A stretch of DNA of 64,000 nt from Marsupella aquatica. Taxonomy: Eukaryota > Plantae > Marchantiophyta. The stretch covers positions 21,837,168-21,901,167 of the forward strand of contig OZ316891.1 of the NCBI GenBank assembly GCA_973895155.1, written 5' to 3'. The notes beneath the pieces were generated by a model, which saw nothing but the letters and a program-made list of their open reading frames with translations, made no database searches and was not told the DNA's origin. The position numbers were made by a program, and so were the translations under genes. This document shows, in pieces, positions 1 through 33,894 of this stretch; positions within the stretch are counted from its first letter, which is position 1, and every line of letters begins with the position of its first letter.

Positions 1-220
1 CTTCTGCAATTGGGGGAAATGCCTTTCAGCCGCCATCCAGATAACCCTGATGCACATCCTGATGCTCTTATATGCCCACGACATTATTGTGAGGTCTGTA
101 AGGAGTATCGGGAGGGCATTTGGGATTTTGTCCAATGTCGTAGATGCCCTTGTGCATGGTGTCGTGATGAAGGACCTATAGCAGATAGGCACTTGAGGAG
201 AAGGGTGAGGGGCCGAGACA
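1..220 (+). pseudogene. Fragment of a second EDM2/NSD-type PHD-finger gene, cut by the CACTA-1 terminus at 221
   Basis: ICPRHYCEVC...FVQCRRCPCAWC aligns with ACPLHRCKAC...IVHCARCPTMWH in ORF 10570..11250. The last codons of ORF 10..246 (TLEESEVN) are read from the TIR. The 5' end is outside the window or spliced. Confidence 0.65.
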
Positions 221-249
221 CACTAGAAGAATCCGAGGTGAACTGAGAC

Positions 250-540
250 CGCAATATATGACTCATTTTGGCTCATGTGACTTCATTGTGACTCAACGTG
301 ACTTGACCCACGCTGTGACCCTTGGAGTTGCAAAAGTTGAGACCAAAAAATGGAAGTCACTATTGATACTGGGCTTTGCAACTTGCTTGATACCCATTTG
401 TGACTGATCTGTGACTTTATTGTGGAGTCTAGCCTTGTTTCGACGTGACTGCAATATGACTTCAGCGAGTCACATCGTAAGTCACATACATGACTTACCC
501 GCATTCAACAACGACTAGCGTGTGACTATTTAGTGTCACA
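250..540. repeat. Subterminal short repeats (GTGACT/AGTCAC, both orientations) of CACTA-1
   Basis: Dense TGACT/AGTCA motifs directly inside the TIR at 221. Similar motifs occur at about 16690-16990 and 41400-42015. This layout is typical of CACTA TnpA-binding regions. Confidence 0.7.
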
Positions 541-1075
541 GGAGAGACCAATGGAGACCCTGGCCCGCGTCACACAACAGAACCATTTGGGACTCTATAT
601 ACTCATGTTTATAACTAATAAGGTTCACATGCAAGTTATAACCATGACTAATGAACACAGAGGGACAGTTCATAAGAAGAGAGAGCACTCGACATTACAA
701 TACATAGAAACCTGATGTTCTAACTTTAGAAATATAACACATTGAATACAAGAAATGAACATAGCATGAATGACATCCACATGAAACAAAGCATCATATA
801 AGCAGATCCTACATAAAACATTCATAAGAATTAAACACAATCACAATCTTGCTAAAAAATGAAGATCATTTGAATTCCAATGGAATAGTTTACAATGTGA
901 TCAATGTAATTTAGACAAAACAGGAACTCATAATTGATGACTGTAGGATGAGATAACTGAAAGCACATGCATGATACTATGAATCTCCAAGAGGACATGA
1001 TTCTTGTACTGTTTCTTGACATCTAAAATCTACATAACATGACTCACACTACAAACAAATAATGGCATGACATTG

Positions 1076-4000
1076 TTATGGATCCTCTATGAACTTGCTT
1101 GGCCATAATACCAAAGAACCTGCAGCATCTCCAAGTGTCTTTTGAGGAGGATCATCATTTGTGTTTGGAATGGGAAGGACAGCTTTAGGTTTCACTAGTA
1201 ATGTGACTAACACTACTGAATAACCTGGGGGAATCCTCTTGCCATGGAACGTTGTGGAACCAACCTGCACTCTGGCAAATCCTACTCGTGTTCCACTCTC
1301 ATCAACAGCTAACAAGCCACTTTGTCCCTCAGCATTAGGTGCTTTCCCCACTTCCACCTTAGATCTTTCTGCCAGCACTGTTCTTGGAGGTTTGTATGAA
1401 ACCTTTGACGTGGCTCTGCTCCCACCAGCAGACTTGCTTCGTGTGCGCATGCTTCCTCTCTTCACAGTAGTGAAGCTAGGCTCAGTAGGTTCCTCTGTTA
1501 GGACTGTCACAGTAGCAGGTTCATCACCTGGGAGTGTCATACCAACTAACTCTTTGGTTGGATTTATCTCAACAAGAGGCACACCTGTCATTGAGAATGA
1601 TACATTCTGCAAATCATTTATCTCTGCAATGGAGTCAAGATCTACATAGCATGAATCTGGCTCAATGGTATCATTGTCATGCTTGCTGATATCCTCATTT
1701 GCCCCAACATTGATATCATCCACTCCCTTGCCAATGTCATCCTCATCCAAACATGGTTGACTGCCCTCTGTCAAACAAGTTGCTTGTACAGACTGCAACT
1801 TTGTTGCCTCTAAATTACAGCGAGTATTTGCCAGGTTCTCATACTTCTTCTCTGTAGCACCTGTCTTATTCTCTATGGACACAACAACCACAATATATGT
1901 TACTGAAAATAACACATTCAACAAACAATGTCAATTCAAACTATACATTTAATAATCATATCCCACACAGTTGTAAAGGCCTTACCTTCAAGCCTACATG
2001 TCGTTGGCATGCCAGAAGAGTGCATCGACTTTGCCACCTCAAGTGGTGATGGTGGAACTCCTGCAGAATTGGAATCAATTTTATCTCTCACCGACACAAC
2101 AGCTTCCATTAATGTCTTGAAGTTCACATGGAACAAGTCAGTCAATGAATTCAAACGTTCATTGATCTCTGGAAGACATGTTTCGACAGCCTTCAAACGA
2201 CCACTTATCTCTGTAAGTGAAGATCCACCTCCCTACATGACACAGGGGTATAGGTTCAATCACTCCATATGAAATGTTGGGCAATATATGCACAATCAAT
2301 GTTATATACAGTGTACACCTGAAATTCAACGCAGGTCATTCAATTACCAATCAGAACTCATATAACTTACATGCTTGGAGGATTCAGATGCACCCTCTTG
2401 AGCCCGGGTGTTCACAATTTCAGCCCTCAACTCTTCTTTTGAAGGGCTTTGCCCCAATTGGGCTTTCTGCACATGCATGGCAAACACAAGTTATCGATCA
2501 ATATTCAGGGAACGTACACTAAAAAACAAAGTTTACATGTAGGGACAGTACACTAAAAAATAGTACATAGTGTAGCATAAATTACATAGCTAGGCCATTC
2601 ATTCTTACCAAACGTTTAGCTGTCGGTGCAGTGCCGGTCCTTCCTGTCAGATTAGGGTTCTGAACACTCAACCTGGCCTCGGTCATCTGTGAACTCTTCT
2701 TTTTTGAAGCATCTGTTACAAAATAAGCTACTAACCTTGCCCACACTTTATCATCACAACTGGCTGGTGGAGGCATATCTGGCTTCTCCCCACCTTCCTT
2801 CCAAGCCTTATGCATTCTCCACCTCTCTTGCTTGATAATTTTACCTGCTGTACTCTCTAGGCAACCTATGTCCACGCCATCATCACTGCCCACATAATTC
2901 CATTTGGCAGCAACATTTTCACATACAGTCTTCCAATCTTTTGGATGCTGTTTTTTAAAATTAATAACACTCACATCTAACCAACGCAATACTTCAGCTT
3001 TCAAATCAGCATGCCATCGGTTCTTGCGAGGACACTCAGCATCCACCCATTGTCTCTCATTCAACTTTACGTTCCCTTTCTTTGTCACCTCCCCTCGTGC
3101 ACTGCTCTCGGTAGTACTGGGCGTTGTATTGGCCACCCCTTCATTCACCCTACCTGGGGTTCTGAAGCCACCTGGGAAAATACAATGCCATTCATGCTTG
3201 AGAACTACATATAGCAGAATGGATGACGGCAACATTCAATGCTTCACTTCAAGAAAAATTCTTCAAACATACATACCTGTAGCTCTGCCTGTAGATGCCT
3301 GTGCAGGGACTGCACTCTGAAATTGTTGCGACCCTGGACCACCTGTCCAGCCTAGTACAGGGGCCGGATGATGTCACTTTCTAGGTATGTGTGTGCAAAC
3401 ATATGTACTGAAAACTAAGTACAAACTGTAGGAAAACAACTGAACATTCACCGACATACCTGTCCCCCTTCCGTGCTGCATCTGCATAGGGGCATTAGTG
3501 AATACTTGAGTCGATGGTTCGACTGTCCAACCTGCACACATACATTTTCTATCATTATACATGTGCAGAGTCCCCCCCACGTGAATGGACTCCACATATA
3601 ATGAGTTCTTCCATTGCTGACAAGATCAGACATTACCTGCTCCTCTTCCAGCGTTTGTAGGTACTGAATTTTGATATCCCTGCCAATTACCTTCACCACC
3701 TTCCCAACCTTGTTCATTCCACGACCCACCACCATCCTCCCAACCTGGTTCAACCCATGTCTGTCCTTGTGGACATTGGAACTGATCATTACTAGCATTT
3801 GCCCAATCAGGTTGGGCAGAATCTGCATGCAATGGCAGGTGGACAGAATTTCATGTTGTCTGAATCCAATACATCCCAAACAATGTCAAAAATTGATATG
3901 CAGTCTGAAATTCAGGAGTGCCATGCCTTCACAAAGAACTGGCATATAGATATATACTCACATCCCCACGGTTGAGGTGGACGTCCATACCCACGAGATT

Positions 4001-4783
4001 GTGGGTTTGGACCTGCTCTGCCTCTACCACGGGCATAACCTAGAGCTTGCCCCCTGCCATAGTATTGGGCACCAGCCTGGGATCTACCACTACTACCACC
4101 TCGCCAACCTTGATCAGAGGTCAGCCCCCCCTGCTGGTATGGTGCATGCACAGGCTTCGAAGGCAAAACAGAACTGGCAGGACGCTGCATCACATCACCA
4201 ACTACAATGTCAGGAACTAAGCAAGGTACATATGTGTAGTACTGAACATATGAAACCTCTAAACAAGAGTTTTTAACTCAAAACCTTGTTGGGAAAACTA
4301 CTTACATGTTTCTTTTGGGGCTGCTCTGCAATGTATTCATCTTCATAACCCCCATCCTCATCCATTTCCTCTGGAAAATACTCATCATCTGCATCTTCTT
4401 GTCTAGTGTCTGCACCCACCTGTGCAGCATCAATGTCATCTCCACATTCTGCCATTGTAGGTACGACCTTCTTGCTCAACCTGTCACTCCGACGCACAGG
4501 CCCAGAGATAGTGCTGGTCACCCTTCTTGCGTACTCCTTTTGTTTCTTTGAAAATGCTGTGGCTCTGCGACATTCCAATATGAGAATACAGTCACAATTT
4601 CAGTGCCACATTGAACTATTCATGTCACACAAACTCAGCGGAGGGGTGTAGTTGAGAATCGTTCCCTTACAATTCAGCCACATCCTTTTCCAGATCCAGT
4701 TCTGCGATTTTGGCTTTCACGTATGCTCGTTGTTCCATAGCTTTCCTTTCATACTCACACATCTCTGTGTCACTCTGTTCCAT
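1076..4783 (-). CDS. tnpA: TnpA-like (ORF2) protein of CACTA-1, about 10 exons
   Basis: GT-AG exon model: 4783-4671, 4564-4306, 4184-3962, ~3825-3637, ~3531-3460, 3351-3277, ~3172-2609, ~2466-2372, ~2232-1987, ~1861-1076. The first six junctions were checked and are in phase. Central Ptta/En/Spm-like region (DDKVWARLVAYF...KKSSQMTEAR...NLTGRTG); C-terminal Tnp1/En/Spm-like motif (FHGKRIPPGYSVV...KTLGDAAGSLVLWP). Confidence 0.75.
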
Positions 4784-4939
4784 CCTACTGGACCACAAAA
4801 ACATGTCATCTATGGTCACCCCGTATAACACAATGCAACCACAATCACCAGGCATCCATCCATACATCTGTGTTGCTTCAGAATTACTTTATTACACATC
4901 CTTCCCCTCACTAATGTCTATGCAAACAATTCACATTAC

Positions 4940-7900
4940 TCATGGCACAGGCACACTGTTGGCATCTGCATCTCTGAATTCGCCTCCTTCAGCAAATGCA
5001 TCTACCCTTGTCACAGGAATGAAGTCCCCGCTATCATGAACTACAGGCACTTGGTCTGAACGCCGACGATCAAAGGCACTATGAGAGTGTAAATGAAACT
5101 CAAGGTTTGATCCTTCCATCCGGCGTTGCCTGGCCTGTTTATGACACACTACACGCCAACCTGGGGAGTCTTCCACATCCAGGAAGAAAGCTTGCTCCAC
5201 CTGACTAGGAAACACAAATGGCTCAGACCATTCGGGCAATTTCCCTCTGAAATTGGCCAGCAAGAAACCGTCGTTGTCTCTCTTCATGGTAGCCCTGTTA
5301 CCAAGCCAATCCTGCCGCACCCATGAACCTTTCATAAGAATCACAGGACTGGACACCGCCCCATAGTCCAGAGCCCATATGTCAACTAATTCTCCCACAT
5401 ATCCCATCTCCATCCAGGCCCTGTCGTGATTGTGGCTCTGTTGCTCAAATACAGTGATGAGCCCGCAGTCATTCGTCACCCTGTAGGCACTGTCACCATC
5501 CTTCACTCGGAAGTGATTCCCATATGCTCTCATCCGTTTGTAAGTCTTCACTTTCAGGCTAGGGGCATTAGACAGTAGGTAAACATCTGCATCCATGTCT
5601 GGGTGGGTCTCGTGATGCTCTCTAATTGCCACTCTGATCCACTCCATGAAACCTGGAAAAGTTGTTCCTGCAGTGGGATGGGCCGCCTTCAATGACTCAT
5701 ACTCCCTGAACGAACAACCACACAGCATTAGCTTGGGTAAACATGAACAGGCTGAAGGAGAAAACCACACGAACACAACATTTAAGCTCATGAACTGGAT
5801 TATAGCACATGTATGCACTCACTGTATCCAGGGTTCCATCACCACAGTGTTGTGCAATACAAAGTCATGTGCCAAGTCTCTCATAGATATGGTCAGGTTC
5901 TTTGTGGTTGCAGCCCCTTCCAGTACTTCACCTACCACCCCTTCCTCCTCATCAGAATTCCACACCCTGGTCTTCACATGCTCATATTGTGCTATGTATT
6001 CGGTCAGAAATCCCAGAGTCTCATCCTTGATGTAACCTTTAGCCATGCTTGCTTCAGGTTTGTAATATGTTCTCACGTGACCTTTGAGTAGCTTCATGTA
6101 CCGTTCCAAAGGGTACAACCAACGAGCACTCACAGGCCCAAATTGGTGTAGCTCTTCCACAACATGGACAAGTAGGTGGGTCATGACATCAAAAAATGCG
6201 GGAGGAAAATAAATCTCCAGGTCACACAGCACCTGAGCGACATCTTCTGTCAGTTGTGGGAAGTGTGTTTCATCCCAAACCTTCACACAAATACGACGAA
6301 ACACATCACTGAGTCGCATGATCACAGTACGAACAGGCTTCTGCAACAGGCCCCTCAGGCATAAAGGCAACACCTGTTGCATCAACATATGGTAGTCATG
6401 GCTTTTCATACTACCAAGCTTTCTAGTCATGATATGCTTCTTGAAAGCACTGCCATAGTTTGAAGGAACCTTCAAAGAACTCAACCTCTGCACAAATAGT
6501 TCCCACTCTGTGTCTGTCAGAACATAGGGCGCTTGGTACTTCAAGAGCACATCAGCTCTGTGGGCATGTGGCCTCAACCAAAGATGGGGTTTCATTCCCC
6601 TCTGTTCAAGATCCAATCTCACTGAACCAGTGTCTTTCTCTCCACACAAGAATCTGAGTAGACTCTCACAAATATTCTTTTCAATGTGCATAACATCAAT
6701 GTTATGTTTGCTTGGCTCAAACTCCTGCATCGTTGCAATGCAAAAGCGTCAGGAAATGCCTCAAGTTTAGTCTCTCTCTTCGAAATGAATGCACATGCTC
6801 TGAACCAAAACATGTATCCCAATTAGCATCAACTCCAAGAGGCTTACCCTCCAGTACTTGAGCTCCAAGTCCAATATGCTCAGTCTTTTTACACCATATC
6901 GCTTTATTGGATCACTCACTCCATCTTCCCTGCCCCCTCGTTTGATATAGTCATCCCTCAGTGCTCCCCACTGCCTGATCTCCTCTTTGGTCACTCGTGC
7001 CGGGGGTCCACGTTGCTCAATCTCATTGCCAAAGTGTGCAATCAGTGCCTGTCTTTCTCTGTAAGGGTGATCTGTCTTCAGAAAACGACGATGGCCCATG
7101 TATATCACTTTCTGCAGGGCTCTGGAGTACTCACTGGTGACATTGCGCCCACAGATAGTACAAGCACAATATCCTTTTGTTGTTTGGCCTGATATCATCC
7201 CATGGGCTGGGTAGTCAGCTATAGTCAGAATGACAATGGCTCTAAGGATGAATGGGTTTAACCTCCCAAGCCTCTGTAGGACATCATATGTGAGAACTCC
7301 TTCCTCCCAAAGCTTTCTCAATTCCTCCACTAGGGGAGCCAGAAACACATCTATGTTGGCAGATACAGCACTGTCTGGCCCTGGTATCAGTAGGACCATC
7401 AGAACAAAAAATCGCTTTGTAGTCATCCAAGGAGGAAGGTTATAATTCAAAATAGTTACAGGCCAGCATGAAAATTTGTTGTTCTTGTCTCCAAATGGGT
7501 TTACCCCATCCAATGACAGCCCAAGTCTGACATTCCTCGGCTCAGCAGCAAATTCGGGATACATCTCATCTATGAGTTTCCATTGCCTTGAATCTGCAGC
7601 ATGTCGTTGTAGCCCATCATCACTTTTCTTGTCAGTTGCCCAAGTCATCATCTCCGAGATGGCACGGCTTCTGAACATCCGCTGAAGTCTGGGAATGAGT
7701 GGAAAATGACGAAGTACCTTGGCGGGAACCATAGACTTTCCTGAGTTCCGATACCTGTGCTTCCCACACTTAGGGCATGTCAACGATTCTTTATACTCCT
7801 TTCTGAAAAGAACATGCCCATCAGGACAGGCATGGATCGAATCATAGTTCAATCCAAGATTAGATATGCATCTTTTTGCCTCGTACATGTTCTTGGGCAA

Positions 7901-8671
7901 AATATTACCATCTGGTAGCACAGTTGTTCGCAAGAATGCCAACAACTCAGAAACCAAAACGTTGGGGACATTGTGGTTGCCGCAAATGTTCAGGAACATG
8001 ATGACAAATCCCAGTTTAGAACATTTGCTACCGGGGTACAAAGACTTCCTGCCTTCCTGTATTTGCAGGGGAGAGCCAAACATCCCATCATGCCCAGGGG
8101 TTTCCTGCCCTATCTCAAACTCATCAAGAGGCTCTTCGACAGGGGGCACACTTGCATCTGCAGCCGTATCCTCTTCATTGTCCAGCCCATCATGAAATGC
8201 ATCCAAGTCTTGGAAGATGTCTCTCACCATCTCTTCCACATGAATTCCTTCGTCACGTGGTGCTGCCTGAGCACCATCCCGTTGGAGAGCTGACAACCCA
8301 CAGAGACCAGCTACAACATTTTCAAATGCACCAGGCAGAACCTCACTTGCCCGTCTTGCAGCATTGGCAGCATCAAATTCTAACCTCCACTCCTCGTCGG
8401 AAGAATCTTCCTCTGCAGGATCATTCCAAACTCGATGTCGTGGATCTCTTCCATGAACCGCGATATGCCGCCAAACCTCATTCAGACCCCTGGTACGGGA
8501 TCCTTGGCAGATTGCACAAGGACATCTCATCCTACTGGCTCCTGAAAGTCTGGTTCGTAACCTTTCACGCTGCCAAAGCTTATTATCATGGCGTGATATC
8601 CTTGTGGGATGATGCAAAGGCAGTGCCTGTGCCCTGGGCTGGGTCTGGGGAGGGTGGTGACCAGGGTGCAT
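4940..8671 (-). CDS. tnpD: CACTA TnpD transposase, 3 exons (8671-6848, 6724-5823, 5705-4940), 1163 aa, apparently intact
   Basis: Transposase-associated Zn motif CPCAIC...H; IHACPDGHVLF...CPKCG; EPRNVRLGLSLDGVNPF; ADYPA; HNIDVMHIEKN; MKSHDYH; FPPAFFDVMTHL; WLYPLERYM; EPFVFPSQVEQAFF. Both introns are GT-AG and join in frame with no stops. Confidence 0.93.
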
Positions 8672-9104
8672 TGTAACAGGCTGGGAGCTCTGCAGTCATG
8701 GACAGCAGTGAACAAGGATGCCTAATGGTGGTATTTGTGTTCCATATATCCCTGACTGTATCTGCCAAAAGAGTTAACATAACGTGTACTAAATTCTCAC
8801 AAACCCTAAACCACCCCAAAAGAAAAAAACAGGTTCGCAAGTAGTGTACCTATTGTCAAGTGAATGACACAAAATTTCTAAATGTTGGAGGGTGTCACCA
8901 CCTCCTCCGCTGTCCTCAAATGTACCGCCTCTGCATGTACGTTTACAGTGACACCCCCAGGCAGCAGGAAACAACAATCCGCCAACAGTAAAATAAGCCC
9001 AACTGCCACCAACCATAACAAGGTACATTAGTTCAAAGATCACATTTATTTCAATGATCTGATTTATACAAAAAAACTTGTGTCCAAACTGATGCTACTA
9101 CTCC

Positions 9105-9977
9105 TCACTCTGATTCAGAATCGCTAATGACCCATTCCTCACTTGTTGTCTCATAGTCCTCTCTGTAAGGATCCTGACCCTTCCGTGGCCAGGCCTCAAA
9201 AAGATCATAGTCCATTGGGTTTTGACGCTTCCCAGCTGCTACTGATTCCACAAGCCAAGCATATGAAACCACAAACACATTATGGGACATGACATAAAAG
9301 CGAATGTCTCCCTTCCCAAACTTGCGGCAGGCTTTGGGATATGACTTAGTAATGACATGAGTGGTGTCCTCTGTTATATTCTCCTCCACTGTCCCACCTA
9401 GGTCAAGCACTGTGGACTTGTACACTTTGCACTTAACCTCTCCAATTCCCGCCTCCACAAATACCATGCTCAGCCCTTTCAGAATGGGGGTTGGTTGCTT
9501 CGTCTCCTCAGCCAACATACTCTTCAGCCTTGTAGAGCTCTGTCCTTTGTTGAGTACAGGTCCATATTGGAGATCAGCAAGCCGTGCCTTTGCTTCCCAG
9601 ACTTCTTGTTCAGCCCAAGCTGATGCAGTAGCTTCTTCATCCTCCCACAACTCATATTGCTCAGTATCCTGTACAATCTTATGTGCTATGGAATCTGTGA
9701 TCCAAGAGGCCTCAACTACTTTTAGGCCTTGCTTAGTAATTGCAGAATTCATGTAGGACCATGACCACTTCTTTATCACTGATAGCCATGTCCCTGCAAC
9801 AACATGTGTAGTCTCTGGAGTGATGTCCTGAACTACAGTGCCATGGAGCTCAGAGAATCGTTTCTGTACAGTTGGCCAATGCACTTTGGTCAACCCATGC
9901 TGGCCATGGACCAAAATCGCTCTGACCCCTGTAAACACTGCTGGGTGGTCACACTTTCTACGTTTACCAGGCTCCAT
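9105..9977 (-). CDS. Intronless tandem-BRCT protein (DNA polymerase lambda-type BRCT x2), CACTA-1 cargo
   Basis: Two internal repeats with the BRCT signature: VFTGV...LHGTVVQDITPETTHVV...VVEASWITDSI...QYEL and ILKGL...LGGTVEENITEDTTHVI...VVSYAWLVESV...DYDL. N-terminal KRRK may be an NLS. Confidence 0.85.
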   Translation of the reverse strand: MEPGKRRKCDHPAVFTGVRAILVHGQHGLTKVHWPTVQKRFSELHGTVVQDITPETTHVVAGTWLSVIKKWSWSYMNSAITKQGLKVVEASWITDSIAHKIVQDTEQYELWEDEEATASAWAEQEVWEAKARLADLQYGPVLNKGQSSTRLKSMLAEETKQPTPILKGLSMVFVEAGIGEVKCKVYKSTVLDLGGTVEENITEDTTHVITKSYPKACRKFGKGDIRFYVMSHNVFVVSYAWLVESVAAGKRQNPMDYDLFEAWPRKGQDPYREDYETTSEEWVISDSESE

Positions 9978-10569
9978 GTACACACACCCTACGTGATGAC
10001 AGTGAATTTTGGAAGAATGGGTTCACCTGACAATACAAGGACAACAAAATTCCTGCTTTTTGAGTTGATCTGGCCCACTGGTGCTCAGGTCCGATTTTGA
10101 TAGGTACAAGGGATATGTGAACAATACGTACTAGGCACCTGCACGGATGCAGGACATTGTTTGAATATATACTACAAAATCCATATCCGTGGTGAAATGA
10201 AGTGCAACCAACTTGTCATGGCACATACATATTTTGTTGTAAAGGAGGATACATTCAATGACAAACTTATAGGGCAATTTGATTAATTGCATGCCTGATA
10301 ATTTATACGCTTACAACTTAGAAGTCCTGTTTTAATTTAGCAGTGTGATGAAAGTGTTTATGAAAATGACCACTCAGCCTAAATACTTCCAAGAAGGCTT
10401 GTAAGGATAAGTTTGTATAGGCATGTACCCAGCCACTGACGCCAGAGCACAAGATAAGTGCTGCCTATATAAACTCGCCTACCCAACTCCTTTTCAAAAT
10501 TGGAATCTCTGCAATCTCAAAAAATAGTACATCCACATCAGGTGCACTGTGCATGTACAATGTTCAGCT

Positions 10570-11250
10570 TCACAGCCAAGATATGTGATCTCTCACAGGA
10601 GTGCGCGAGGTAGGATCAATGGCATGGCGATGACAATAAAATATCCATCGATCAACACCATGTGCAGAGTGATCATAGATTTCTCTGTCACAAGCATAAC
10701 CCTCTGCTTGATGATCTTTCAGGCAATGATAGTGCCACATAGTGGGACACCTAGCACAGTGGACTATGTCAGTCCAGTAGTCATCATCATGCTCACCACA
10801 TGCCTTGCACCTATGAAGTGGGCAAGCTGTGGCATGAGCAGGCAAACACTCAAAACAGAAAAATCTCACACAAAAACGGTCTGGACATTTCCTAACATTT
10901 GCTGCAGCATCAACAGAGCCCTCATAGGACCCCAACTTCCCACACTGTGCACACTTAGCCTGCTTCTCCAAACAATCAGTGCACATCCAGTCTCCCTGGT
11001 GTGTTGACGGGAGGCCCACCCCTGGACAGTTGTTTTCTGCAGCAAGGTCAGACTCCGGGTTGAGGTGGAAATGCCTCATGCAAGGGCCCTCACAAATGAC
11101 CAGGCCCCCACCATCGTCACAAATGGCACAACAATGAGCTGCCTTCTGGAAAATCTGACTTGCAGAGAAGTTAGTAGCATCTGCCCCAAGTACACCTGTG
11201 TTTCTCACCTCTGTCACACGCTTTTTGGCTTGAATTTTAGGCCGTGCCAT
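10570..11250 (-). CDS. Intronless EDM2-like composite triple-PHD-finger protein, CACTA-1 cargo
   Basis: CAICDDGG-x-CEGPCMRHFH...C...CTDC; CAQCGKLGS...C-x4-C...CFEC; CPLHRCKAC...CARCP...HYHCL...FYCHRHAID...TPVRDHI follows the plant EDM2 PHD module residue by residue, as I recall that sequence. No other EDM2 domains are present. Confidence 0.87.
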   Translation of the reverse strand: MARPKIQAKKRVTEVRNTGVLGADATNFSASQIFQKAAHCCAICDDGGGLVICEGPCMRHFHLNPESDLAAENNCPGVGLPSTHQGDWMCTDCLEKQAKCAQCGKLGSYEGSVDAAANVRKCPDRFCVRFFCFECLPAHATACPLHRCKACGEHDDDYWTDIVHCARCPTMWHYHCLKDHQAEGYACDREIYDHSAHGVDRWIFYCHRHAIDPTSRTPVRDHISWL

Positions 11251-11261
11251 GCCTGCGCATG

Positions 11262-11405
11262 AGATAGACTCTACAATTTAGCAGACTGCACAGAAAGTAA
11301 TATATATTTAGCATTTAAGGTACAAAGGCATTTAGATAGACTCTACAATTTAGCAGACTGCACAGAAAGTAAAATATATTTAGCATTTAAGGTACAAAGG
11401 CATTT
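11262..11405. repeat. 72-bp tandem duplication just upstream of the PHD ORF
   Basis: AGATAGACTCTACAATTTAGCAG...AAAGGCATTT occurs at 11262-11333 and 11334-11405 with one mismatch. Confidence 0.95.
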
Positions 11406-12020
11406 GCTACTGCAATGAATTGGAATGGCCACACAAGGATGCAGAGCACACATACTTTTGGTATGTTGAGCCCACACACAAAACTGATCCCCTAATACAA
11501 TTTCTCCACCAACACCTCAATTTTAATTGTGGCTATGATTCACCAAAGGAGATCTGCAACAACATTTCATGCATTTGAATCACATACAATAGTCGTGACA
11601 TGTAAAACAGGCATTCTTCGAAGAGGATTGGTATGAAGCAGTGTCATAAGGGTTGAAATTTATACATCCTAAATAGGTTATGATAGTGGCTGAGACAAAT
11701 AAGTGAGGCATAAATCATTTTGCATATTATCACATGGCCCATTAATTCATTCAACGTTGCAATGTTCACCAGGTTAAAGCAGTCATGAAAGCAGTCTTTC
11801 AATAGAGACTTTTATGCGAGTTTGCTAGCCTCTTAAATTAGGATATTTTGCTTAGTGCAGGCATAATAGGATATAAGTTATATACTGTTGACCCTAAACC
11901 CTGGACCCAAAATTGCTCATACATCAAAATTTTAAGTAAATATCCTCTGTGTTGAAGTCAGAGTGTTAAGCTATAGGTCAATGGTATCTGGTCTGTGCAT
12001 GCGGTGTGACAAGTGGTCCT

Positions 12021-12470
12021 CTAGAGCATGTGATCCAAACATGTGTAGACACCAAAGTCACCGGTGGTGGGGTCTAGGAGGGCAGGACAAGTGACATCAC
12101 CAGGCACACTGCAGGATGGCGAGTGGTTCCAAATGATACATTGTGCTCTATGCAAAAATCGGCATCCAAGAGAACGGTCATCCAATTCTGGGCCAGAAGC
12201 CCTACAGGCAGGACAGTCATATTGGCAACTGTGTACACACCCTTGGCACCTAATTTGTGGCGGGTCATGTACAAGAGACACAAATACCAAGGATGTCGGG
12301 AAGGGTACTGAAGCAAGTAGAGGCCGGCTGTAGTTGTTCCTGGAAACAACAGGGTACTCAAAGTACCATGCAGACTGGGCTGGAAGGATCCCAAGTCTGA
12401 CATACTCAAGGCGCAACATCTCTGCCTTGCGTGCAAGTCGCACATGTTCAGCGTTGCGGGTCCTCACCAT
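12021..12470 (-). CDS. Cys/His-rich small protein of unknown family, putative CACTA-1 cargo
   Basis: 149-aa ATG-initiated ORF on the same strand as the other cargo; CQGCVHSCQYDCPAC...C...H...C...H...C...C...C..H. No family recognised. Confidence 0.45.
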   Translation of the reverse strand: MVRTRNAEHVRLARKAEMLRLEYVRLGILPAQSAWYFEYPVVSRNNYSRPLLASVPFPTSLVFVSLVHDPPQIRCQGCVHSCQYDCPACRASGPELDDRSLGCRFLHRAQCIIWNHSPSCSVPGDVTCPALLDPTTGDFGVYTCLDHML

Positions 12471-15442
12471 AAGTGTTGCTTTTGTTGTGATGTCCTCTGT
12501 TCACGTCCTTTGATGAGCAAGGTGAGCAGGAGGTCGACTTGCCTCGCCAACAGCAACCACCTAAACTAATCAGTTCCCACTCAACTACAGGTCATAGTAT
12601 ACACATAGCATGAAACGTGCATAGTACATATTTGATTCTGAGTTTATGAGTTTCCTAAGACAAAGAGCTTGGTGATAAACCCATATTCTCGATGGACATG
12701 TATATCAATCGTATTAAAATCCTGTTTTTTCATCCAGAAAGACCGAAAGTCTCACCTTGCAGGTTGCAGCAGAGAGAAAATTCACTGGTTGTCGTGTTGT
12801 GCAAGTGAACCTCCACTGATGCCCCCGGTGTAGCCCCTCAGATGCAGGTGACACTTACCAACTCCCAAGTTGCCTGGTCTAACAGAAAATGCTTATATCT
12901 TCAGAACTTTATAGAGCAAGTACATGATCACATACTTCTGGATCTATTCATATTTGGAACTCTTGCCAACTACAACTCCCATTATGCACAAGCTCACATC
13001 AACAGAGAAAGATACAGAATGCATACTTACTAGGCTCTAAGCACCTTCACTACCTTGTTGAACCCAGTCCTGAAGTCTTTTCAGCGTGTTTGTTGTGCTG
13101 TCTCCTTTGGCACCCAACACCTTAGTCCTTGATGTAACAGAATGCAATTTTACAAGTTAGATGCTTTGGAACCTTCTATGGTCTTAGCTGAATTGATGTC
13201 ATCGTAAGTGGTGAAAGACAAGGAAGACGAAAGCTGGTTGAAGAGCTGTAGACAACACACTAGCATGAAGTGCTTCAACCAATCCACTGCCAAACGGAAC
13301 TCTTACACAGTCACATTCTTTCAGTAAACAGAAACTCAGTCAAACTTTATAATCAAAGTACAGACTCTGAAGGACCAAAGGAGGATGTTGTGAGTTTCTC
13401 TGTTGTTTAATGTGTTACCCTTCTAGTTTCGAAGTTAGCAAATGCTGAATAATGTGTCTACCAGATCTTCGAAAAGAAGCCCACCACAATTAAGAACTTT
13501 GGTATCTGGGTGAGGTATCAGAGTCATACAGGTTATCCCAACATGTAGAAGAAATATCGTGAAACCACATTGAACATCGCTGTAGAGCAGATGTATGATG
13601 AGATGGCTTCTTGTCATAGAGTTCGGTTCCCTTGCATCCAGATCATCAAGACTACGACAGTCCCTGTCTCTCTGTGCAAGCGAGAAAGTACCAAGCAGTT
13701 CCATGATTCAAAGATCAAGTTCCCCTTGACGTACCGCAAGATTCAACCTCCATCGCGAAAGCTAAAGACGACTTACAAGGCCACCAAGCCCAACACATTT
13801 GTTTGAGTTTCTAGGTCAGGATGCTTAATATAAGGAAATTCAATTTTCACTTCGTTCCCAGCTTCTACTAATTGAATATACACGAGATGGAAGCAAGAAG
13901 ATAAGCCACAATCTAGCATCTTAGCCAAACACATTCGTCCCGACAAAGCAAAACTACAATCACACAGTGCGAGTTGTGTCTGCACCGGCACCCCCAGTGA
14001 GACTGATCAGCATTTGGACTGCATCATTGTCTAGAGCTAGCAGTGGAAGGAATCAACATAGCTAGCAGTGGAAGGTGCAGTGGAGATAGCATGGGGACAG
14101 GGAAGGAAATGCAGGTTCCTTAAGCATAAATTTCCAAAAATGGAACAACAGGAAATGAAGAATAGGCACTGAAGCGGTCAACTAGACAAACGTTGTAACA
14201 AGGCAGCAAGCATTGGATTAAGAAGAAGCAAGGTTTCATCAGCAGAAGCAAGGTTTCATCAACAATGGCATTGTGAGACAAACCACTCCTTACAAATTTC
14301 TACAGACATCCTCCCCACTTGCAGCTTCTCGGCCAGGCTGGATTTCTTGTAAGACAGGTTTCTTGTAAGAAAGATTTCTTGTTTGGTGAGGAAAGATCAA
14401 AAAGCAACTGATCAATGCCTTCTTGTCATCTAGAAGAGCTGGATGCAGCCCTGTCTCACATTTAATGTTAAACTGAATGAAAGACATTATGCGCATGCAC
14501 AAAAGAAAGACATGAATATAATTAAGGTAGGTTTTAAGGAGCGGAGTCAGCAGTCAGACTTAGAAAGTTCAAATTGAAGCGCCATTAGTTTGGCGTGGTC
14601 AAGAGTAAATAAATGTTGGTCAGGGATACTCACCTCTTTTGAATGTATTACTGACTCAGCTAAGCCCAGCTAGACAGAAGTCACTCAGACCCACAAAAAA
14701 GTGAAGATCCACCTCCAAGCCGGAGCTCTATCACTTCAGTAGAGCAGCTTCTGGACGGAACCAACTCTAATCAGCCCCACAGAACACAAATGTTAAGGCT
14801 CCAAGTCAGAGCTCACTTCAGCCGAGGTGGACATCGCAGCTAGACCATTCAGTATAGGCAGTATGGAGCCTGAGACTACGCTCATTGTTCAGAATTGAGG
14901 TGATGAAAGTGAGTTGGCATCAGTGGATACAATGAGAGGGGAAAAAATTCTGACCAAATCACACCTCTATAATCAGAGAGGTTCTATTTCCAGGGAACTC
15001 ATTCATTGACCAGAGTAATATGGCCCACATTTAATTAGACTATGATAGACTCTTCCTCTGCAGACTCAAACTCGAGGAACCCCCACGGATGCCAGCATAT
15101 ACACGAGCTAGAAGCAAGAACACAAGTCGCAATCTAGCATCTTGGCCAAACACATTCTTCCTGGCGATAGTAACTGCAAGCAAGGGGGAGACAGGGAGAA
15201 CAAGGAGAATAGGGAGGCAACTCACAATGGAGCTAGGTAGCTCATGATCAAGCAACTTGCAATTGCAGCAACAGTAGTCTTAGTAGCAAGCGATTGAGCT
15301 CCAGGAAATGACAAACCCGCAGCTGAGTCCTCAACTGACAAAATGTTCGCCACTCGACCCTCCTTCCAACTGCAACCGCCAGATAGTAGGAATAAGATAG
15401 AGAGGTTGCAGCCTTCTCAGTGATCCAATAGCACCTCTCTTA

Positions 15443-15705
15443 CCACCTCCGCTCTTAGCACATCCGCTCGCACCTCCGCTCTCAGCACCTCCTTTGGCAC
15501 CTGAGCCGCTCTCAGCACCTCCGCTCGCACCTCCGCTCTCAGCACCTCCTTTGGCACCTGAGCCGCTCTCAGCACCTCCGCTCGCACCTCCGCTTGCACC
15601 ACCTCCTTTGGCACCTGAGCCGCTCTCAGCACCTCCGCTCGCACCTCCGCTCGCACCACCTCCTTTGGCACCTGAGCCGCTCTCAGCACCTCTGCTCGCA
15701 CCGCC
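15443..15705. repeat. GC-rich minisatellite of 12/18-bp modules (GCACCTCCGCTC / GCACCTGAGCCGCTCTCA)
   Basis: Directly visible tandem units; it generates low-complexity ORFs in several frames. Confidence 0.9.
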
Positions 15706-17748
15706 GCCCAAACTGAAGCTACGTAGCAATCCTCAGCAGTGTGTGACAGAAGCACTCCACTCCAGCTCCACTCCGCTCGAGCTCCACTCCAGCTGCTCTC
15801 CGCTCGTAGCTCCTCGGCCAGACCGGCGGCCAGAGCAGCTCCCAAATTGCAGCTCCTGCCCGCCCACAGCTCCTCCCAGTCCTAGAGCTCGTCGTCCACT
15901 GCAGCTCACCTCTCCACTCCGCAAGCCGGTCGCCCTCTCAGCTTGAATGCTCTAGAGCTTTGAAGGTAAACCTTCAAGCTCCAAGCACAAAACTCCCCTA
16001 CGCGAAGGAACTGCCCCGATCACGAAGCACACTCCCCACTTTGTGAGACCACGCACAATGTGACAACCTTCAGGCACGACGAATGTCCCCGTAATGGACA
16101 AGTGAGTTTTTCTGAAACAAAACCCTCCGAGTTCCCACGCACATTGAACTGAACTTTGCATTCTGCTGGCGTGTTTAAACCCTAAACAAAACCCGCGCAC
16201 CCTAAACTCGTGTCCAAAGGCACACTCCCGCACAAAGCATACCTTAACACTTAGTGACACTTAGTGAACCAAACCCAATGAGCCTCGACCACTTTGCGTT
16301 GACATGAGCCGTTGATACACATGTTAGTACCCTAAAGCAAATTGGACACGACACTTTGTGAGCAAAGATTAAATGAACGCAACTGTAACCTCTTAGAACG
16401 CAACTGTAAATTAACCCTTACACATGCCACTTAGGGAGGGTGGACAAAGAATGGGGGCCAGACACTACTTTAGCCCTGAATTGAAAATGATATCACCCCA
16501 ATATTCTTGTCAAAGTTGCCCATGAACTCTAAGGAATCCATTGAGCAGCATAAGACTTACTATTATAGAGGCAAGTACTCCCATGCACGTTTAATTAGGC
16601 TAGCTAGGATAACTAGCTACAATGCTCTTGACATGAAGACATTTAACTAGTTCTGCAACCCTAAACCCCCATTCCTTCTATGTGCACCTAGTGCTCCCGA
16701 CTCCGCAAGTTGCAAGTCAAGGGTTGTAAATGGAACATTCCGTGATGTCTAGAGTGCATGTAATCCTTCTTGCACTCTATTTCAGAATGCCGTAATGGAG
16801 AGTAGCTTATTCAACTTACATATGACTGCCCTACTAGTGTTACAATTGCTACTTTATCAGAAGTTGTAGGAATGACTTTCACAAATATCCCCCAAAAATC
16901 AGTTGATAAAATGTAACAACAATGACTCCCCTAAACTTGGAGTCATGTATTTTTGAAAGTCTCCCTAAAGTCACAAAGCATAGGGTCTCAAAAGGGGACG
17001 TTTTCTTCTAGTGGAGATATTAGGATCATATGTCGTAAGAAAACTAATTTTCGTGATGTGTTGGTCCGCAAATATGGTGAAGTATGGTTTAACAGTATTT
17101 TAGTTTCACCTGAACCTTTCTTAATACCCACTACCCTTGTTACTAGAATTATCATTTTGATTTTAGTGTAGAACTTATGAGCATGCAAAGTTAACTTCAT
17201 AAGAGCGAACATGCTCCGTGGATGAAAGCACAACATCATAACCCTTTTTTCCATACCTACGGACTATTGCCTCCTTGGCAGCTACCTTGGGTCGAGTTAC
17301 AAAACGAATATCTCCCAACGAGAAAGAAACGGGAGGCTCATCGGAGGGAAGTTTGTTGAGATCCATCTCAATACAAGATAAAAATTGTGCAAGCCCAATC
17401 CTGCCTGTAAACTACATAAGGGTATACAATTGGCTCTATTGAATTTAATACCGCAGTTGCAAATGTTTCTCCAAAGTGAAAAGTCATATGCTGGCGCATT
17501 ATCTCTTTTTGGAGTACATGAATTTTAATAAGGAAAGGATTAGGGAGAGGAAGAATAGGTACTGGTCTGGGCATTATCGTACTATCAAATATTCCATCCA
17601 ACTAATTTTCATTCTAATGACAAGAGATAGAATCATTCAACAAAAAGATCATCCATTTCAAACAAATATCATGCATTGAGTTAACTCTAAGTATATACAT
17701 GCAGATGTTTATCTTAATAGGTTGATCTTCTTTTGAATGAAAATACTA

Positions 17749-18011: not shown

Positions 18012-18231
18012 GTTATATTCATAGAAGAGATCATCAAATCCAATGGATTTTTAAGACTTCACAACTTAGTTGATGAAAAATGGGGAGTGAGGGGAGAGAG
18101 CCCATCTCCTCTTTATTTATAATGCTCACACCTCAAGCACACGGATCAAGCATGGCACACGGATGGAAGCCATGTGTCACACATCCAAGGCAAGTAAGTG
18201 TGCTAGTACTATAGTTACGTGAGTGGAGCAA

Positions 18232-18520
18232 CTGTAGACAGTACACTATAGTATGCACACTGTAGATCGTACACTATAGCATGCATACTGTAGATCGTAC
18301 ACTGTAACATGCACATTGTAGATTGTACACTGTAGCATGCACACTGTAGATCGTACACTGTAGCATGTACACTGTAGCATGCACACTGTAGATCGTACAC
18401 TGTAGGTCTTGCACTGTAGCATGCACACTGTAGATCGAACAATATAGTATGCATACTGTAGACCGTGTACTGTAGCATGCACACTGTAGGTTGTGCACTG
18501 TAGCATGCACACTATAGACT
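18232..18520. repeat. 14-bp-unit minisatellite (CACTGTAGCATGCA / CACTGTAGATCGTA)
   Basis: About 20 contiguous 14-bp units of two mostly alternating types. Confidence 0.93.
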
Positions 18521-18666
18521 GCATATGCGAGAATTTAAACTACTATCCTATACTACTAAGCTATACTTAGGAGGAACTTACTAAACAAAGAATCCCCACG
18601 ACAACGGCCATGCATGCTGATCGCTATACATGTGAACTCGATGTAAGTGCTCTAGCTACAACTTGT

Positions 18667-20756
18667 CTACATCGAACTAGAAAGGAGTGTTCCTGCCCCT
18701 CCTTGCCTTCTTCCCCTTGGCCTTCTCCTTGCCCTTGTGTGCTCTTGGGGGGGTGCAACCTGGACTTCCTCCTCCTCTTGGTCACCCTCATCCTCATCCT
18801 CATCCCCACCTCCACCGCCCTGGCTTGCCGCGCTACCACCCCCAGCACCACTGGAACGTGCTGATGCAAATGACTGGTCTCCAGTGCTAGTTGGCTTGGC
18901 TTGAGTAGCAGGAGCTGTGCTCCCCTCCCCTGTCCCCTCCACATCCTCATCACTACTATCGGTGCCACCCTCGGTATGGGAGTCACCATCCTCCCCTCCC
19001 TGCTTCCATTAGCAAACCAGGGTGTCTGTTAGTCTCATATTCTTTACAAGTGTGAACAAATGAGATATTCATTCAAAATTGCAATGAATGTAATAACCTA
19101 AAAATTCTCACCAATAATTCATCAACTTGCTGAAAGAGATGCTCCTTCCCATGTTTCTGGCCCACCTCCATCTCAGCCGCCGTAATCTTCCTCTTGTACC
19201 TCTTGTACTAAGCCAAAACAAAACCAGCACAATTGGGTTAACACCAACCCATAACCCGATTCACATGGCTTCTAAAAATTAGGGGGTTTGTTGGGGCTGG
19301 TGGGGTGGTGCATCAAGGTTTTGGGGTTATGGAGGGTGGCATATATGGGGAAGACCCTCAAAGAACACTTAAACGATCGGAAAATTTAAAAATTCAAATT
19401 TTTGAAATTTTGCGAAGGCGCCAGCTTCGCAATCATAAGGACAATTACGTTTGCGAAGCTGGTTGCGATGCGAACGTCTTCGCAATGCCTTCGCAAACGT
19501 AAGCAAAAAAAGGGCATAATAAGGTTTGCGAAGGATTTGCGAAGCTACCCGCATCGCAAATGTATCGCAAACTCTGTCATGGCAAAAACCCGAGAGGGAA
19601 GCAACTGTACGTGACCTAATCTGACACAACAAGTCTAATTGTAACTACTTGGTGGAAATGCAAGAAAGAGTTGGCTCATTGCAGGTGTGTTGGAATAGGA
19701 ATTGGAGTAGCAAGAAGTCAAGGGAGGAGAGGGAGGTGCACTCACGAATGCTGCTTTGAGGCCGGGGAGGCCACCTTGACCCAGCCTGTGGGTGATGTTG
19801 GGCTTGTCTCGGACTCGCTTAGCTGCCTTCAGGAACTTGTTGGGTGGATCGCCTACTTCTGCTACAACCTGCTGGAGCTGGGCTACCTTCTGCTCCATCA
19901 CCTTCAGGTCCCGGTCAGACTTCCCGGCCTACTTTGCCCTTCGAGCCTTTGCCAGCTTCTCTGTGAAATCATTGAGGAGCCTGGCTGCTTTCAACTTCAC
20001 CTCTGTCTGGTAGAAGGCCTGCCAGATATCTTCTGAGAATTGCAGCGGCCTCTGCAAATTCTTATACTCCTCCAAATCTCTAAGGTGAGACCTGATCTTC
20101 ATTCTATCATGGTATCTAGCTTGTGACATGGAGTTTGAAATTTTGTTAGCAAGCCACTGTGAATCCATCTCTCCTCCATTTCGAAATGCATCTTTCACCT
20201 GATTGATGACTCACTTCTGCTCTGCCTTTGAGCGAGTGCCCCACTCGACTCCTCTTGCAAAATTTGTGGATACAATGTGCCTGATTGTGCTCTTGGCCCC
20301 ATTGTAAGCAAGCTCGGTGGGAATCCCCTCATCCTCTAAAGTAATCAGAGGCAGCTTCCTCCTTGCTGCCTCCTTCTTTCTTTGCTCCTCCCTCTGTTTC
20401 CTGATCAGGTCTCTCTCATCTTTCCTCCTCTTCTTTTCCAATGCTTGAGGCGAGAGCACTCCAGCTTGAGCTCTCTCGTCCCTCTTTCGCTTCCTCTCAG
20501 CAGCCGTCTGCTCTGCTGCCTTCCTTGCATCCTCCTCCACTGCTGCTTGCCCTGCAGTGAGACCTGCTTGCAAGGCTTGGCCCAGAAGGGCACTCAATGA
20601 TGCCAGCCCTGTTGGACTGGTGAAATCAATTTGACTCAACTGTGCAACCAAAAAATGCTCATCCACAATCGCCTTCAATCGATTCCCCCCCCCTCGGTTG
20701 CCTCCGCTGCTGCCAGAAGCTCCTCCATCACCACCAGTCCCCTCTTCGCTCGCCAT
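18667..20756 (-). pseudogene. TnpA-like gene of CACTA-2 with two in-frame stops, about 3 exons
   Basis: ORFs 20211..20912, 19929..20198 and 19635..19901 share one frame separated by single stops. Motifs RPLQFSEDIWQAF and ITHRLGQGG resemble Ptta/En/Spm proteins. Donor GTGAGT near 19745, short exon near 19100-19210, acidic final exon. Confidence 0.6.
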
Positions 20757-21469
20757 CGCTCCGCCCTTGCCCTCGTTGCTCTCCTCAGGCCTGAATGAAC
20801 TGAATCCGCCTTGTCCGCGCTCGGCAATCCATAAGGATTCAAAATATTGGGCTTTGCGATTCGTTTCGCATCGCAGTTTGCGATGCATCGGCCTTCGCAA
20901 AAAGCTTCGCAAATTCTATCTTTGCGAAGCTTCAAGATTCGCAAAAGCCTTTGCTATTTGGTTTTGCCATAACCCCCGTCTCGCATGCGTATTTGATGTG
21001 TTGTTAGGGATACTAAGGGGGCTTATGAACATTAAATGGGGTAGATGTAGAGGATTATGTTGCATTTTAGTGGGATGTGATGAGATAAGGATTGGGGGGG
21101 TTAGAAAATTGAAGGAGTTATATTGCAGGGTAAGAGGAGGGGGTTTGGCCTGGTTAGGGGAGGGTTTCTTTTGTGAAGGTTGGGCTTAGATTGGCTTAGA
21201 TACGAGGGGTTTTATGTTTTGGGTTTGCAGGGGGGTTTTATTTATGAAGGTTGGGGTTATATGTATTGGAGGGTAAGAGCTAGGAGGGGTTTTATGTTTT
21301 GGGTTTTGGGGTTTAGGCCAACTTAGGAGGGTTTGAAAGAGAGGTTTCAGTTTTATAGTATCTTGGGTTACTTTTATGGTATCTTAGGAGGGTAACCAAG
21401 AGGGGTGGCATATAATTATGGTAGAGAGAAGCATAGGATGGTTGAAGGGAATTGACCATTTAGGTTTTT

Positions 21470-22530
21470 GCTAACTTCATTGGCTTACGCTTTTAGAGTT
21501 CCCAAGGGTCTATGGTGGGTTTTTATTGCATGACACTCACCTTTCACTTGAAGCGGGATGAGGTTTTGGTTTTTATGCTAACAATTGAGGGAAATCCCAT
21601 GTAATCATGATCCAGTGCAGGATCATCACTGCTTCCTCAACTTTTGTCTAATGCATATGCATTGTGGGAACCCGGACATCTAAAAGGTATATTTAAACAT
21701 GTATGTTAGCAGGGTTTGATAAAGAGATTGTTCATAAACCTTGCCCTTCTTTGTTGTGCAAGAATATCTATATGCACATGTTTGGGGGTCTACAACTTGA
21801 GAGAAGCTAATGGCTATCCAAACTTACTTTTTTGTTTCCAGTATTTTCCTTGTGCTTCTAGATTCAGCTCATGTTCAATGAGCCACACGACCTACAGGCA
21901 CTATTGAGTCCGGATCTCATTCAGGTAATTATTGTCCAACTTCATTCTGGGCTTAGGCCTTTAGAGTTTTCCCAGGGGTCTAGGGTGGGTTTTTATTGCA
22001 TGACACTCACCTTTCACTCGAGGGGGGATAAGGGTTTAGGGTTTAGGGTTTTATGCTAACAATTGAGGGGAAAACCCATGTAATCATGATACAACGCAGG
22101 GCCAACACTACTACCTCAACTTTTGTCTAATGCATATGCATTGTGGGAACCCGGGCATCTAAAAGGTATAACATCATGTATACAGTCAATGTTGTTAGTA
22201 CAGATTTTTATGCTTGCCCTTCTTTGTTGTGCCATGATATATGTGGGTAAATGTCTAAGATTCCACAACTTGACGGCTGCTAATTACCATCCAAACTTAC
22301 ATTTTGTTTCCAGTATTTTCCTCCTACTTCTAGATTTGGCAAATGTTCCAAAAGCCACGTGACCTATAGGCACTGTTGAGCCCGGGTCATTCAGGTAATA
22401 ATCTAACCTCACTTAGGACATAGGGTATTACAATTTTCCCAAAGGTTATAATGTGGTTTCTTCTTGCATGACACTCACCTTAATTTGGGTTTCATGCTAA
22501 CAAATATAAAAGGGTAATAAAACCCCATGT
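21470..22530. repeat. Diverged tandem repeat, about 470-bp period (about 2.3 copies), upstream of CACTA-2 TnpD
   Basis: TTGCATGACACTCACCT recurs near 21526, 21996 and 22464; GTGGGAACCCGG.CATCTAAAAGGTATA recurs near 21664 and 22143. Confidence 0.85.
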
Positions 22531-22635
22531 ATAAACCAACCTAATTGTTTTTTGAGTTCATTTTTTTTAAATTGCTTTATATATGGCCTAATTTTTCCTA
22601 TCATGCCCTACATGCAATGTAATGTGGCAGTGGAT

Positions 22636-29049: not shown

Positions 29050-29062
29050 ATATGTAGTAGTG

Positions 29063-32195: not shown

Positions 32196-32594
32196 CTTCT
32201 ATCTTTTACTTAGGTGGTTGCCCATGATGAATGTGTAGTTGGAAACACTAGGAATAGGACCTGATGTACTCGGGTGCTTGAAGAGCCAAAAGTGCCAGCC
32301 TCTCCATTGTCCAAGCTGCTAGCATGGTGCTGATAAGGTGATGAGGCCTCTCCAAGGCCTGTTGTACCTGCTGATCTGGGTTGGTCCACACCATGAAACT
32401 CAGAAATATTGTCAGCCATGTTACAAGGGACCTCCTCCCCCCCGATAGTTGGACTGAAGTGGTGAGTGTTGAATAGAGGTACGTGCACCTGGTCTGGATG
32501 CCATGTAGCAGCTCCATGGAGTGGTAGGGCTGGAACTCCTGATGTTGGATGAATGTACATCTGAAAAAGGATGCAAGTGACCAGAAGCCAAGTG

Positions 32595-33517: not shown

Positions 33518-33894
33518 ATCTGGAGGAGGAGTCCATGTAACTGGTGCGCTCAAGATTGGGGCTATTGGCTGTCCATTGTGCTGCCCAAGGTCTTCAAACT
33601 TGCACAATGCAGCCACCAAAGGTCCATGGGCTACTTGAAGTCGTTGTACCACCTCTGGTTGATGATCCACGTTGCTAGAAAGTGCTGCTATATGTGCAGC
33701 AGCATGTGTAGTAGCCACCTCATCGTCATCCTTCTCAATCCAATCGTGCAATGGGTGGTTGACATAGGTAGTTGTGTGCACTTCTTTCAACACACAGTGG
33801 TGAGCCATAGGTGTATGGGCACCATGCAAATCAAGTGGAATGTAGCCCAAGTGTGAGCCATCAGTATGCCAATCAACTATGTAGTATGCATGCT

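Follow-up and report, generated by a model that had tools for sequence, protein, structure and literature searches.

To our knowledge, few plant transposon proteins have a proven anti-silencing role. According to a recent survey that covered 1007 plant genomes, adaptations for broad anti-silencing are rare; in its Table S6, a term search returned five PHD rows, all for MULE elements, and, among 775 active CACTA clusters, one with RTT107_BRCT_5 and one with SET (PMC12973397). In the accessible text of a study of plant CACTA elements, the extra domain is Peptidase_C48 and the term PHD appears nowhere (PMC8978399). On the host side, EDM2 binds H3K9me2, affects the silencing of transposable elements (TEs) and promotes full-length transcripts; it acts with ASI1/IBM2 and AIPP1/EDM3 and suppresses proximal polyadenylation in heterochromatic TEs (accessible parts of PMC7529245, PMC3632883 and PMC10241880). 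Here we describe a CACTA element in a 64,000-nucleotide stretch of the liverwort Marsupella aquatica (contig OZ316891.1; hereafter the window). The element spans positions 221–17013 (16.8 kb) and carries five genes, all on the minus strand, in the 5′ to 3′ order Cys ORF, PHD ORF, BRCT ORF, TnpD and TnpA. As a preliminary description of the locus had stated, the first three are intronless open reading frames (ORFs). The element represents a real, many-copy CACTA/EnSpm-type family of a land plant with old, intact accessory genes kept by selection. Judging from its sequence, there is about an even chance that the transposon uses its EDM2-derived PHD protein as a chromatin reader or decoy to stay expressed under host silencing.

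The PHD ORF (10570–11250, minus strand) encodes 226 residues, in which an EDM2-type multi-PHD module follows a basic head. The EDM2 assignment of the preliminary description is borne out by an alignment with residues 225–432 of Arabidopsis EDM2 (30% identity over 211 columns) that includes the atypical 2.5-repeat PHD module of EDM2 and EDM2-like proteins. The RFD-like N-terminal and methyltransferase-like C-terminal domains of the 1297-residue EDM2 are missing. Since the alignment is confined to residues 225–432, the ORF encodes a derived module and not an EDM2. Zinc ligands are nearly invariant among the PHD relatives, and the C-terminal motif of the EDM2 module is also kept. The structure model has a pLDDT of 88 from residue 30 onwards, and Foldseek matched it to PZP and NSD PHD domains. 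A 72-nt tandem duplication (11262–11405) lies directly upstream of the ORF start.

Five stand-alone relatives of similar length, all unnamed, are 82, 75, 53, 37 and 38% identical to the PHD ORF. A profile of the PHD set matched 564 proteins at E ≤ 0.001, headed by further short proteins and followed by long ones; ten of the longer matches were looked up, and their names include EDM2 of Neltuma, Mangifera and Arabidopsis as well as PHD proteins of Marchantia, Riccia, Calypogeia and Diphasiastrum. In a tree of 31 rows picked from 161 extracted modules, with long-branch rows omitted, the window ORF and ten other short proteins form one clade (support 100/100) apart from canonical EDM2. This clade joins liverwort EDM2 paralogues of ~280–770 residues at 95/85 in the best tree, but the data do not reject a tree that places it with canonical liverwort EDM2 instead (p-AU 0.20). 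Taken alone, the matches would make the host a land plant, possibly a liverwort. The trees leave the donor of the module between these liverwort paralogues and canonical EDM2, and quick trees were no clearer. A metagenome scan for PHD relatives gave one locus from 136 pattern matches: a distant intronless relative (41%) at 595–1200 of the 1.9-kb contig L001. Between the two, identity is 59, 60 and 32% at the three codon positions and 25% at four-fold sites, and 84 of 193 residues are identical. That so many residues agree although third and four-fold sites are near saturation points to long purifying selection on the PHD protein.

In place of the acidic run that precedes the first cysteine in EDM2, the short PHD proteins begin with a basic head, which is predicted to be disordered in the structure model of the window protein. 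After removal of the initiator Met, residues 1, 2, 4, 7 and 9 of this head agree with the histone H3 tail. Among 19 short PHD heads, 12 fit H3 residues 1–9 better than their own shuffles (p < 0.05), and the start M-[AST]-R-x-K occurs in 9 of the 19 as opposed to 3 of 171 other fetched proteins. The rows compared are kin and thus not independent. Some relatives (P0003, P0161) have no H3-like head, and no PDB sequence matched the head peptide. A basic head in the register of the H3 tail could possibly act as a decoy.

We next turn to the family as a whole. Copies were read from contigs of coded sequencing runs, eight of the eleven listed runs being compared; none of the nine runs that cover part of the window is recorded as RNA, which has no bearing on expression, and the best-matching run may be the source of the window itself. 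Because contig depth is not copy number, depths were compared only among contigs of one run. Runs X7–X9, whose contigs are mostly short, low-depth and near-identical, were excluded from judging species range. In run X1, single contigs have depths of 1554–1782 over TnpD, 1641 over the spacer between BRCT and PHD (9968–10516) and 376–440 over 13910–17013. It therefore seems that copies have the part from TnpA to ~13.9 kb in common and vary in their 5′ regions. A 1381-nt contig of run X6, ~5% diverged, covers 8605–9859 and thereby joins the 5′ end of TnpD to BRCT. In the same run, contigs over the PHD and Cys genes have depths of 551 and 316, compared with 182–186 over TnpD–BRCT, a hint that the PHD/Cys part is also carried elsewhere without this TnpD. 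Run X7 has diverged, high-depth contigs over the PHD ORF. The many similar copies suggest recent spread only.

The reading frames of the cargo are preserved among these copies. All 12 listed indels (of 33) in 7800–12700 fall outside ORFs; taken as eight clusters in a region that is 59% coding, these listed indels give p ~0.001. In a second set of contigs, which includes those of runs X1 and X2, none of the 12 listed indels (of 79) lies in the cargo and one lies in TnpA. Listed substitutions are few (synonymous/non-synonymous: TnpD 7/3, TnpA 2/2, PHD 2/1, Cys 2/2, BRCT 0/4). The preliminary description had proposed retained accessory genes, each trimmed to one domain type, and the data support this: the cargo occurs throughout a many-copy family instead of in a single copy, is linked to TnpD, has its frames preserved and is deeply conserved.

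The BRCT ORF (9105–9977, minus strand; 290 residues) likewise matches its earlier description as a tandem BRCT protein: it contains two BRCT repeats (Pfam E 2e-13) that are alike, and it is the ORF linked to TnpD in the diverged contig. Stand-alone relatives of similar length number two (60 and 54%), both unnamed. Its Atlas matches are generic BRCT clusters only, below 0.9. The proposed link to Pol lambda found no backing in the human enzyme, the Pol lambda that was compared: its BRCT domain is a weak match (E 1.1) behind Rtt107, BRCA1 and ligase IV. A resemblance to the plant enzyme is possible. Upstream of the PHD gene, the Cys ORF (12021–12470, minus strand; 149 residues) contains Cys and His; of its 10 Cys, 7 recur in each of its two relatives of similar length (55 and 54%, stand-alone and unnamed). 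For this ORF, described earlier as Cys-rich, neither family nor fold was found: Pfam, NCBIfam and Atlas had no match, a profile comparison did not connect it to the PHD module, and its low-confidence model (pLDDT 58) had no Foldseek match at E ≤ 0.001 and a best VIA Z of 4.2. These null searches demonstrate neither novelty nor a missing fold. For both the BRCT and Cys ORFs, the relative searches covered similar lengths only, so fused forms are possible.

The transposase genes agree with a CACTA assignment. TnpD (4940–8671, minus strand) was described earlier as an uninterrupted frame of 1163 residues. That length is reproduced, but the gene is split over three ORFs, and the frame requires removal of two predicted GT–AG introns, 6847–6725 (123 nt) and 5822–5706 (117 nt), leaving exons 8671–6848, 6724–5823 and 5705–4940; since other splice choices are also open, the exact length is a model. 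Pfam detects Transposase_21 (E 2e-70) and DUF4218 (E 5e-28), with TAD and DUF4216 seen below the cut-off. The C(2)C and H(3-4)H motifs, as defined in the accessible part of PMC12730594, are at residues 504–507 and 791–795. The TnpA-like gene of the preliminary description (1076–4783, minus strand) is an open model with 10 predicted exons, 872 residues, nine GT–AG introns of 105–142 nt each and no internal stops; its Transposase_24 match (E 1.5e-4) is under the curated cut-off. Residues 150–286 are a G/W-rich stretch with six GW/WG dipeptides; a region of 195 residues has 40 G and 10 W. The dipeptides that had earned the protein the label GW-rich, of the kind reiterated in low-complexity regions of AGO-hook proteins, are present, but they are no more numerous than expected from the composition of the region (shuffle, p 0.21). 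A decayed relic of the TnpA C-terminal domain, 48% identical to that of the element, lies at 40922–41095 (plus strand).

The CACTA ends proposed earlier hold up as well. The sequence CACTAGAAGAA occurs exactly at the 3′ end (221–231, plus strand) and at the 5′ end (17003–17013, minus strand), forming a perfect 11-nt inverted pair. With one mismatch allowed there are four matches in the window (shuffle mean 1.55), and the two other than the element ends carry a mismatch. The first 30 bases of both ends also have a 7-nt block in register in common. Inside the 3′ end follow ~400 nt of GTCAC/GTGAC-type subterminal repeats; 13 of the 49 such motifs in the whole element are in the left 400 nt (221–620), and the 5′ end has few (one in the right 400 nt). 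A contig of run X1 stops exactly at 17013, and one of run X2 runs past this position in unlike sequence. The expected 3-bp target duplication, on the other hand, is missing from this copy, as the flanks read ACA and GAG. At this one insertion site, the 6-nt flanks GAGACA and GAGATA agree at five of six positions, and GAG recurs 3 nt farther out on the left.

The left flank (1–220, plus strand) is part of another gene of the EDM2-type PHD kind, into which the element inserted; it is distant from the cargo PHD gene (57% identity to P0161 over 69 residues, E 1e-29; EDM2-module HMM E 2e-10) and itself repeated in contigs. The sequence from 17014 onward was considered as the continuation of this gene: the joined flanks are open, but neither HMM nor BLAST searches support such a role for the right flank, and this gives no proof of the boundary.

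The 5′ non-coding region (13900–17002, minus strand), where depth in run X1 is lower, is apparently subfamily-specific. It contains a 57-nt tandem array (~15390–15730) within a GC-rich stretch that has retained CpG (observed/expected 0.71–0.78, compared with 0.23–0.40 in the genes) and is likely the promoter region. A 65-nt direct repeat (88%) at 13876–13940 and 15097–15161 lies near the drop in family depth, and contig joints are frequent at 13955–14667. Splicing of the genes to a shared leader was considered as well, using a matrix from 11 predicted introns that ranked the acceptor before BRCT 13th of 1239 and left the other four acceptors at background; leave-one-out scores of true acceptors ranged from −7.5 to 7.3, so this test has too little power. 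Spacers between the genes have TATA-like and telo-box-like motifs, so separate promoters are as possible as one spliced leader.

How might a PHD protein serve the element? We suppose that an ancestral element captured the PHD module alone from a gene of the EDM2 family, shed the other domains and gained the basic head. The protein made by the element would then occupy the element's own silent chromatin, where it would compete with or displace host EDM2, or else secure full-length transcripts through heterochromatin as EDM2 does. The BRCT pair would tie transposition to the repair of double-strand breaks where the element excises or inserts, and the Cys protein is probably a small metal-binding helper. 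The cargo may thus amount to the counter-silencing and repair toolkit that the preliminary description had envisaged, although neither the GW dipeptides nor the Pol lambda link added support for it. A more elaborate version seems to us tentative: plant CACTA elements of an old clade would encode the EDM2 PHD module fused to an H3-tail mimic, acting as both counter-silencing reader and decoy in the EDM2/H3K9me2 pathway, and CACTA lineages, which acquire BRCT and SET modules as well, would exchange this cassette.

Several observations weigh against a counter-silencing role. EDM2 itself silences some TEs and opposes silencing at others, with opposite effects on Mu1 and COPIA4 (accessible parts of PMC7529245, PMC3632883 and PMC10241880). 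The acidic residue by which AIRE binds H3K4 aligns with a His in the window PHD protein, and the short PHD proteins lack the acidic run that precedes PHD1 in EDM2; they may therefore differ from EDM2 in specificity. The cargo and TnpD show equal CpG depletion, which indicates that copies of the element were methylated over time. No transposase was found on L001, a contig of 1.9 kb and the only locus whose context was read, and an in-frame stop lies directly upstream of the matched part of its PHD gene, which is likely a decayed copy. Finally, the few variants listed for BRCT give no clear sign of constraint over the short term: none is synonymous and four are non-synonymous, three of these in the acidic tail.

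The main alternative, possible though unlikely, is that the PHD and BRCT proteins are subunits of the transpososome, the former steering or activating TnpD at a type of chromatin, much as the PHD domain of RAG2 steers or activates RAG1, and the latter passing the break to repair. TnpD and RAG1 are members of one transposase group (PMC12730594, accessible part), and some MULE transposases have a PHD domain of their own (5 of 1846 clusters in Table S6 of PMC12973397). BRCT is linked to TnpD at equal depth, and this copy inserted in another repeat-borne PHD gene. Against such targeting stand the greater depths of the PHD/Cys contigs in run X6 (551 and 316, as opposed to 182–186), and the H3-like head is left unexplained.

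If the genes are real and selected but serve chiefly as titrating decoys without reader activity, the head would soak up writers or readers of H3K4 and H3K9. Its predicted disorder and its resemblance to H3 (12 of 19 heads; 9 of 19 starts against 3 of 171) would suit this role. The relatedness of the rows compared lessens the weight of these counts, however; a basic nuclear localisation signal gives a like pattern, P0003 and P0161 do without an H3-like head, and the fully kept zinc ligands fit a folded reader. We regard a pure decoy as improbable.

Still harder to accept is that the ORFs are neutral passengers, captured recently from unrecognised lineage-specific host genes. Close host paralogues may exist, and the listed BRCT variants are all non-synonymous, but the indels avoid ORFs, all three ORFs are intact frames without introns whose relatives (37–82% identity) align over the full length, the second, distant PHD gene in the window also lies within a repeat, and run X7 has its diverged high-depth contigs over the PHD ORF. 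Hardly credible at all is that the boundaries are wrong or the copy chimeric and the cargo part of another element: the lack of a 3-bp duplication, the depth of the 5′ 3 kb at about one quarter of the core and a right flank not shown to carry on the left-flank gene would be in keeping with it, but the ends match, contigs stop or diverge at 17013, and the contig joining TnpD to BRCT speaks against a boundary between TnpD and cargo, a link that a chimeric 5′ end would leave intact.

Beyond the element, the window contains a second CACTA element (22510–27399, plus strand) with a TnpD 30–37% identical to the first. Between its TAD-like first exon and the remainder lies a SET-domain ORF (22972–23799; Pfam SET E 5.7e-6, above the cut-off), possibly an alternatively spliced product. 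Together with the PHD gene of the left flank, this ORF indicates that chromatin cargo recurs in this genome. Charged, coiled-coil-like ORF pieces at 18670–20915 (minus strand), divergent from the second TnpD and without a match to the first TnpA, are perhaps the TnpA-like gene of the second element, and a 14-nt tandem array is found at ~18175–18570. A retroelement with reverse transcriptase, RNase H and integrase-like pieces is present at 32213–34105 (minus strand) and 52750–54642 (plus strand); it includes a C5 DNA-methylase-like region that is only a weak match (Pfam DNA_methylase, E 0.028). Both copies lie in an 8.26-kb inverted duplication (29050–37308 and 49547–57805; 99.66% identity), which is either a recent duplication or a feature of the assembly.

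Returning to the counter-silencing reading, its meaning lies in a high-copy CACTA family in which precisely the reader module of EDM2, a host factor that acts on TE chromatin, has long been retained. This would represent a second route of anti-silencing, by way of histone marks and not DNA motifs. The 226-residue protein is also a natural minimal EDM2 PHD module, suited to direct tests and structural work, and its H3-like head may amount to histone mimicry by a transposon; among the papers listed on histone mimics and transposons, none concerns plant TEs by its title. Accessory epigenetic genes in DNA transposons are already known, but an EDM2-type PHD plus BRCT cargo in a plant CACTA element has apparently not been described: in a literature search that left Repbase, subscription journals and bioRxiv supplements outside, we found no account of a CACTA element with PHD and BRCT cargo or, judging from titles and the opening lines of abstracts, of a TE-encoded EDM2 module.

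The locus can thus be set beside several known systems. With EDM2, the PHD ORF has in common the whole multi-PHD module, including the same zinc ligands and C-terminal motif, but EDM2 adds RFD-like and methyltransferase-like domains and the acidic run, whereas the ORF belongs to a separate, fast-evolving clade with a basic head. En/Spm is resembled in the CACTA ends, the subterminal repeats (here mostly at the 3′ end), the multi-exon TnpA with Transposase_24, the GC-rich repeat region near the 5′ end and a TnpD with TAD, Transposase_21, DUF4218 and DUF4216 (order as in the accessible part of PMC8978399); our element differs from it by three stand-alone genes upstream of TnpD and by the absence of a 3-bp duplication here. 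The VANDAL elements with VANC and KIU are also autonomous DNA transposons that keep an accessory gene, which in KIU includes a long-conserved captured host domain (PMC13317346, accessible part). However, they belong to the Mutator superfamily, and no VANC-related Pfam match was found in the window proteins. Furthermore, VANC reads DNA motifs, demethylates its cognate element in a sequence-specific way and is proven to counteract silencing, whereas the cargo described here has a predicted histone-reader fold and a putative anti-silencing role. The EnSpm/Plavaka elements with TET/JBP and the HarbingerS and MuDR elements with SET are, likewise, DNA transposons with captured epigenetic genes, but theirs encode enzymes and reside in fungi and oomycetes (PMC12730594, accessible part), in contrast to a non-catalytic reader module with BRCT in a plant. 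Finally, Pack-CACTA and Pack-MULE elements resemble this locus in having host-derived sequence between terminal inverted repeats (PMC13317346, accessible part); Pack-CACTA elements are non-autonomous and have near-identical host fragments that are usually broken, whereas the present element has open TnpD and TnpA models of its own, and its cargo is whole, old and selected, at ~30% identity to named host proteins.

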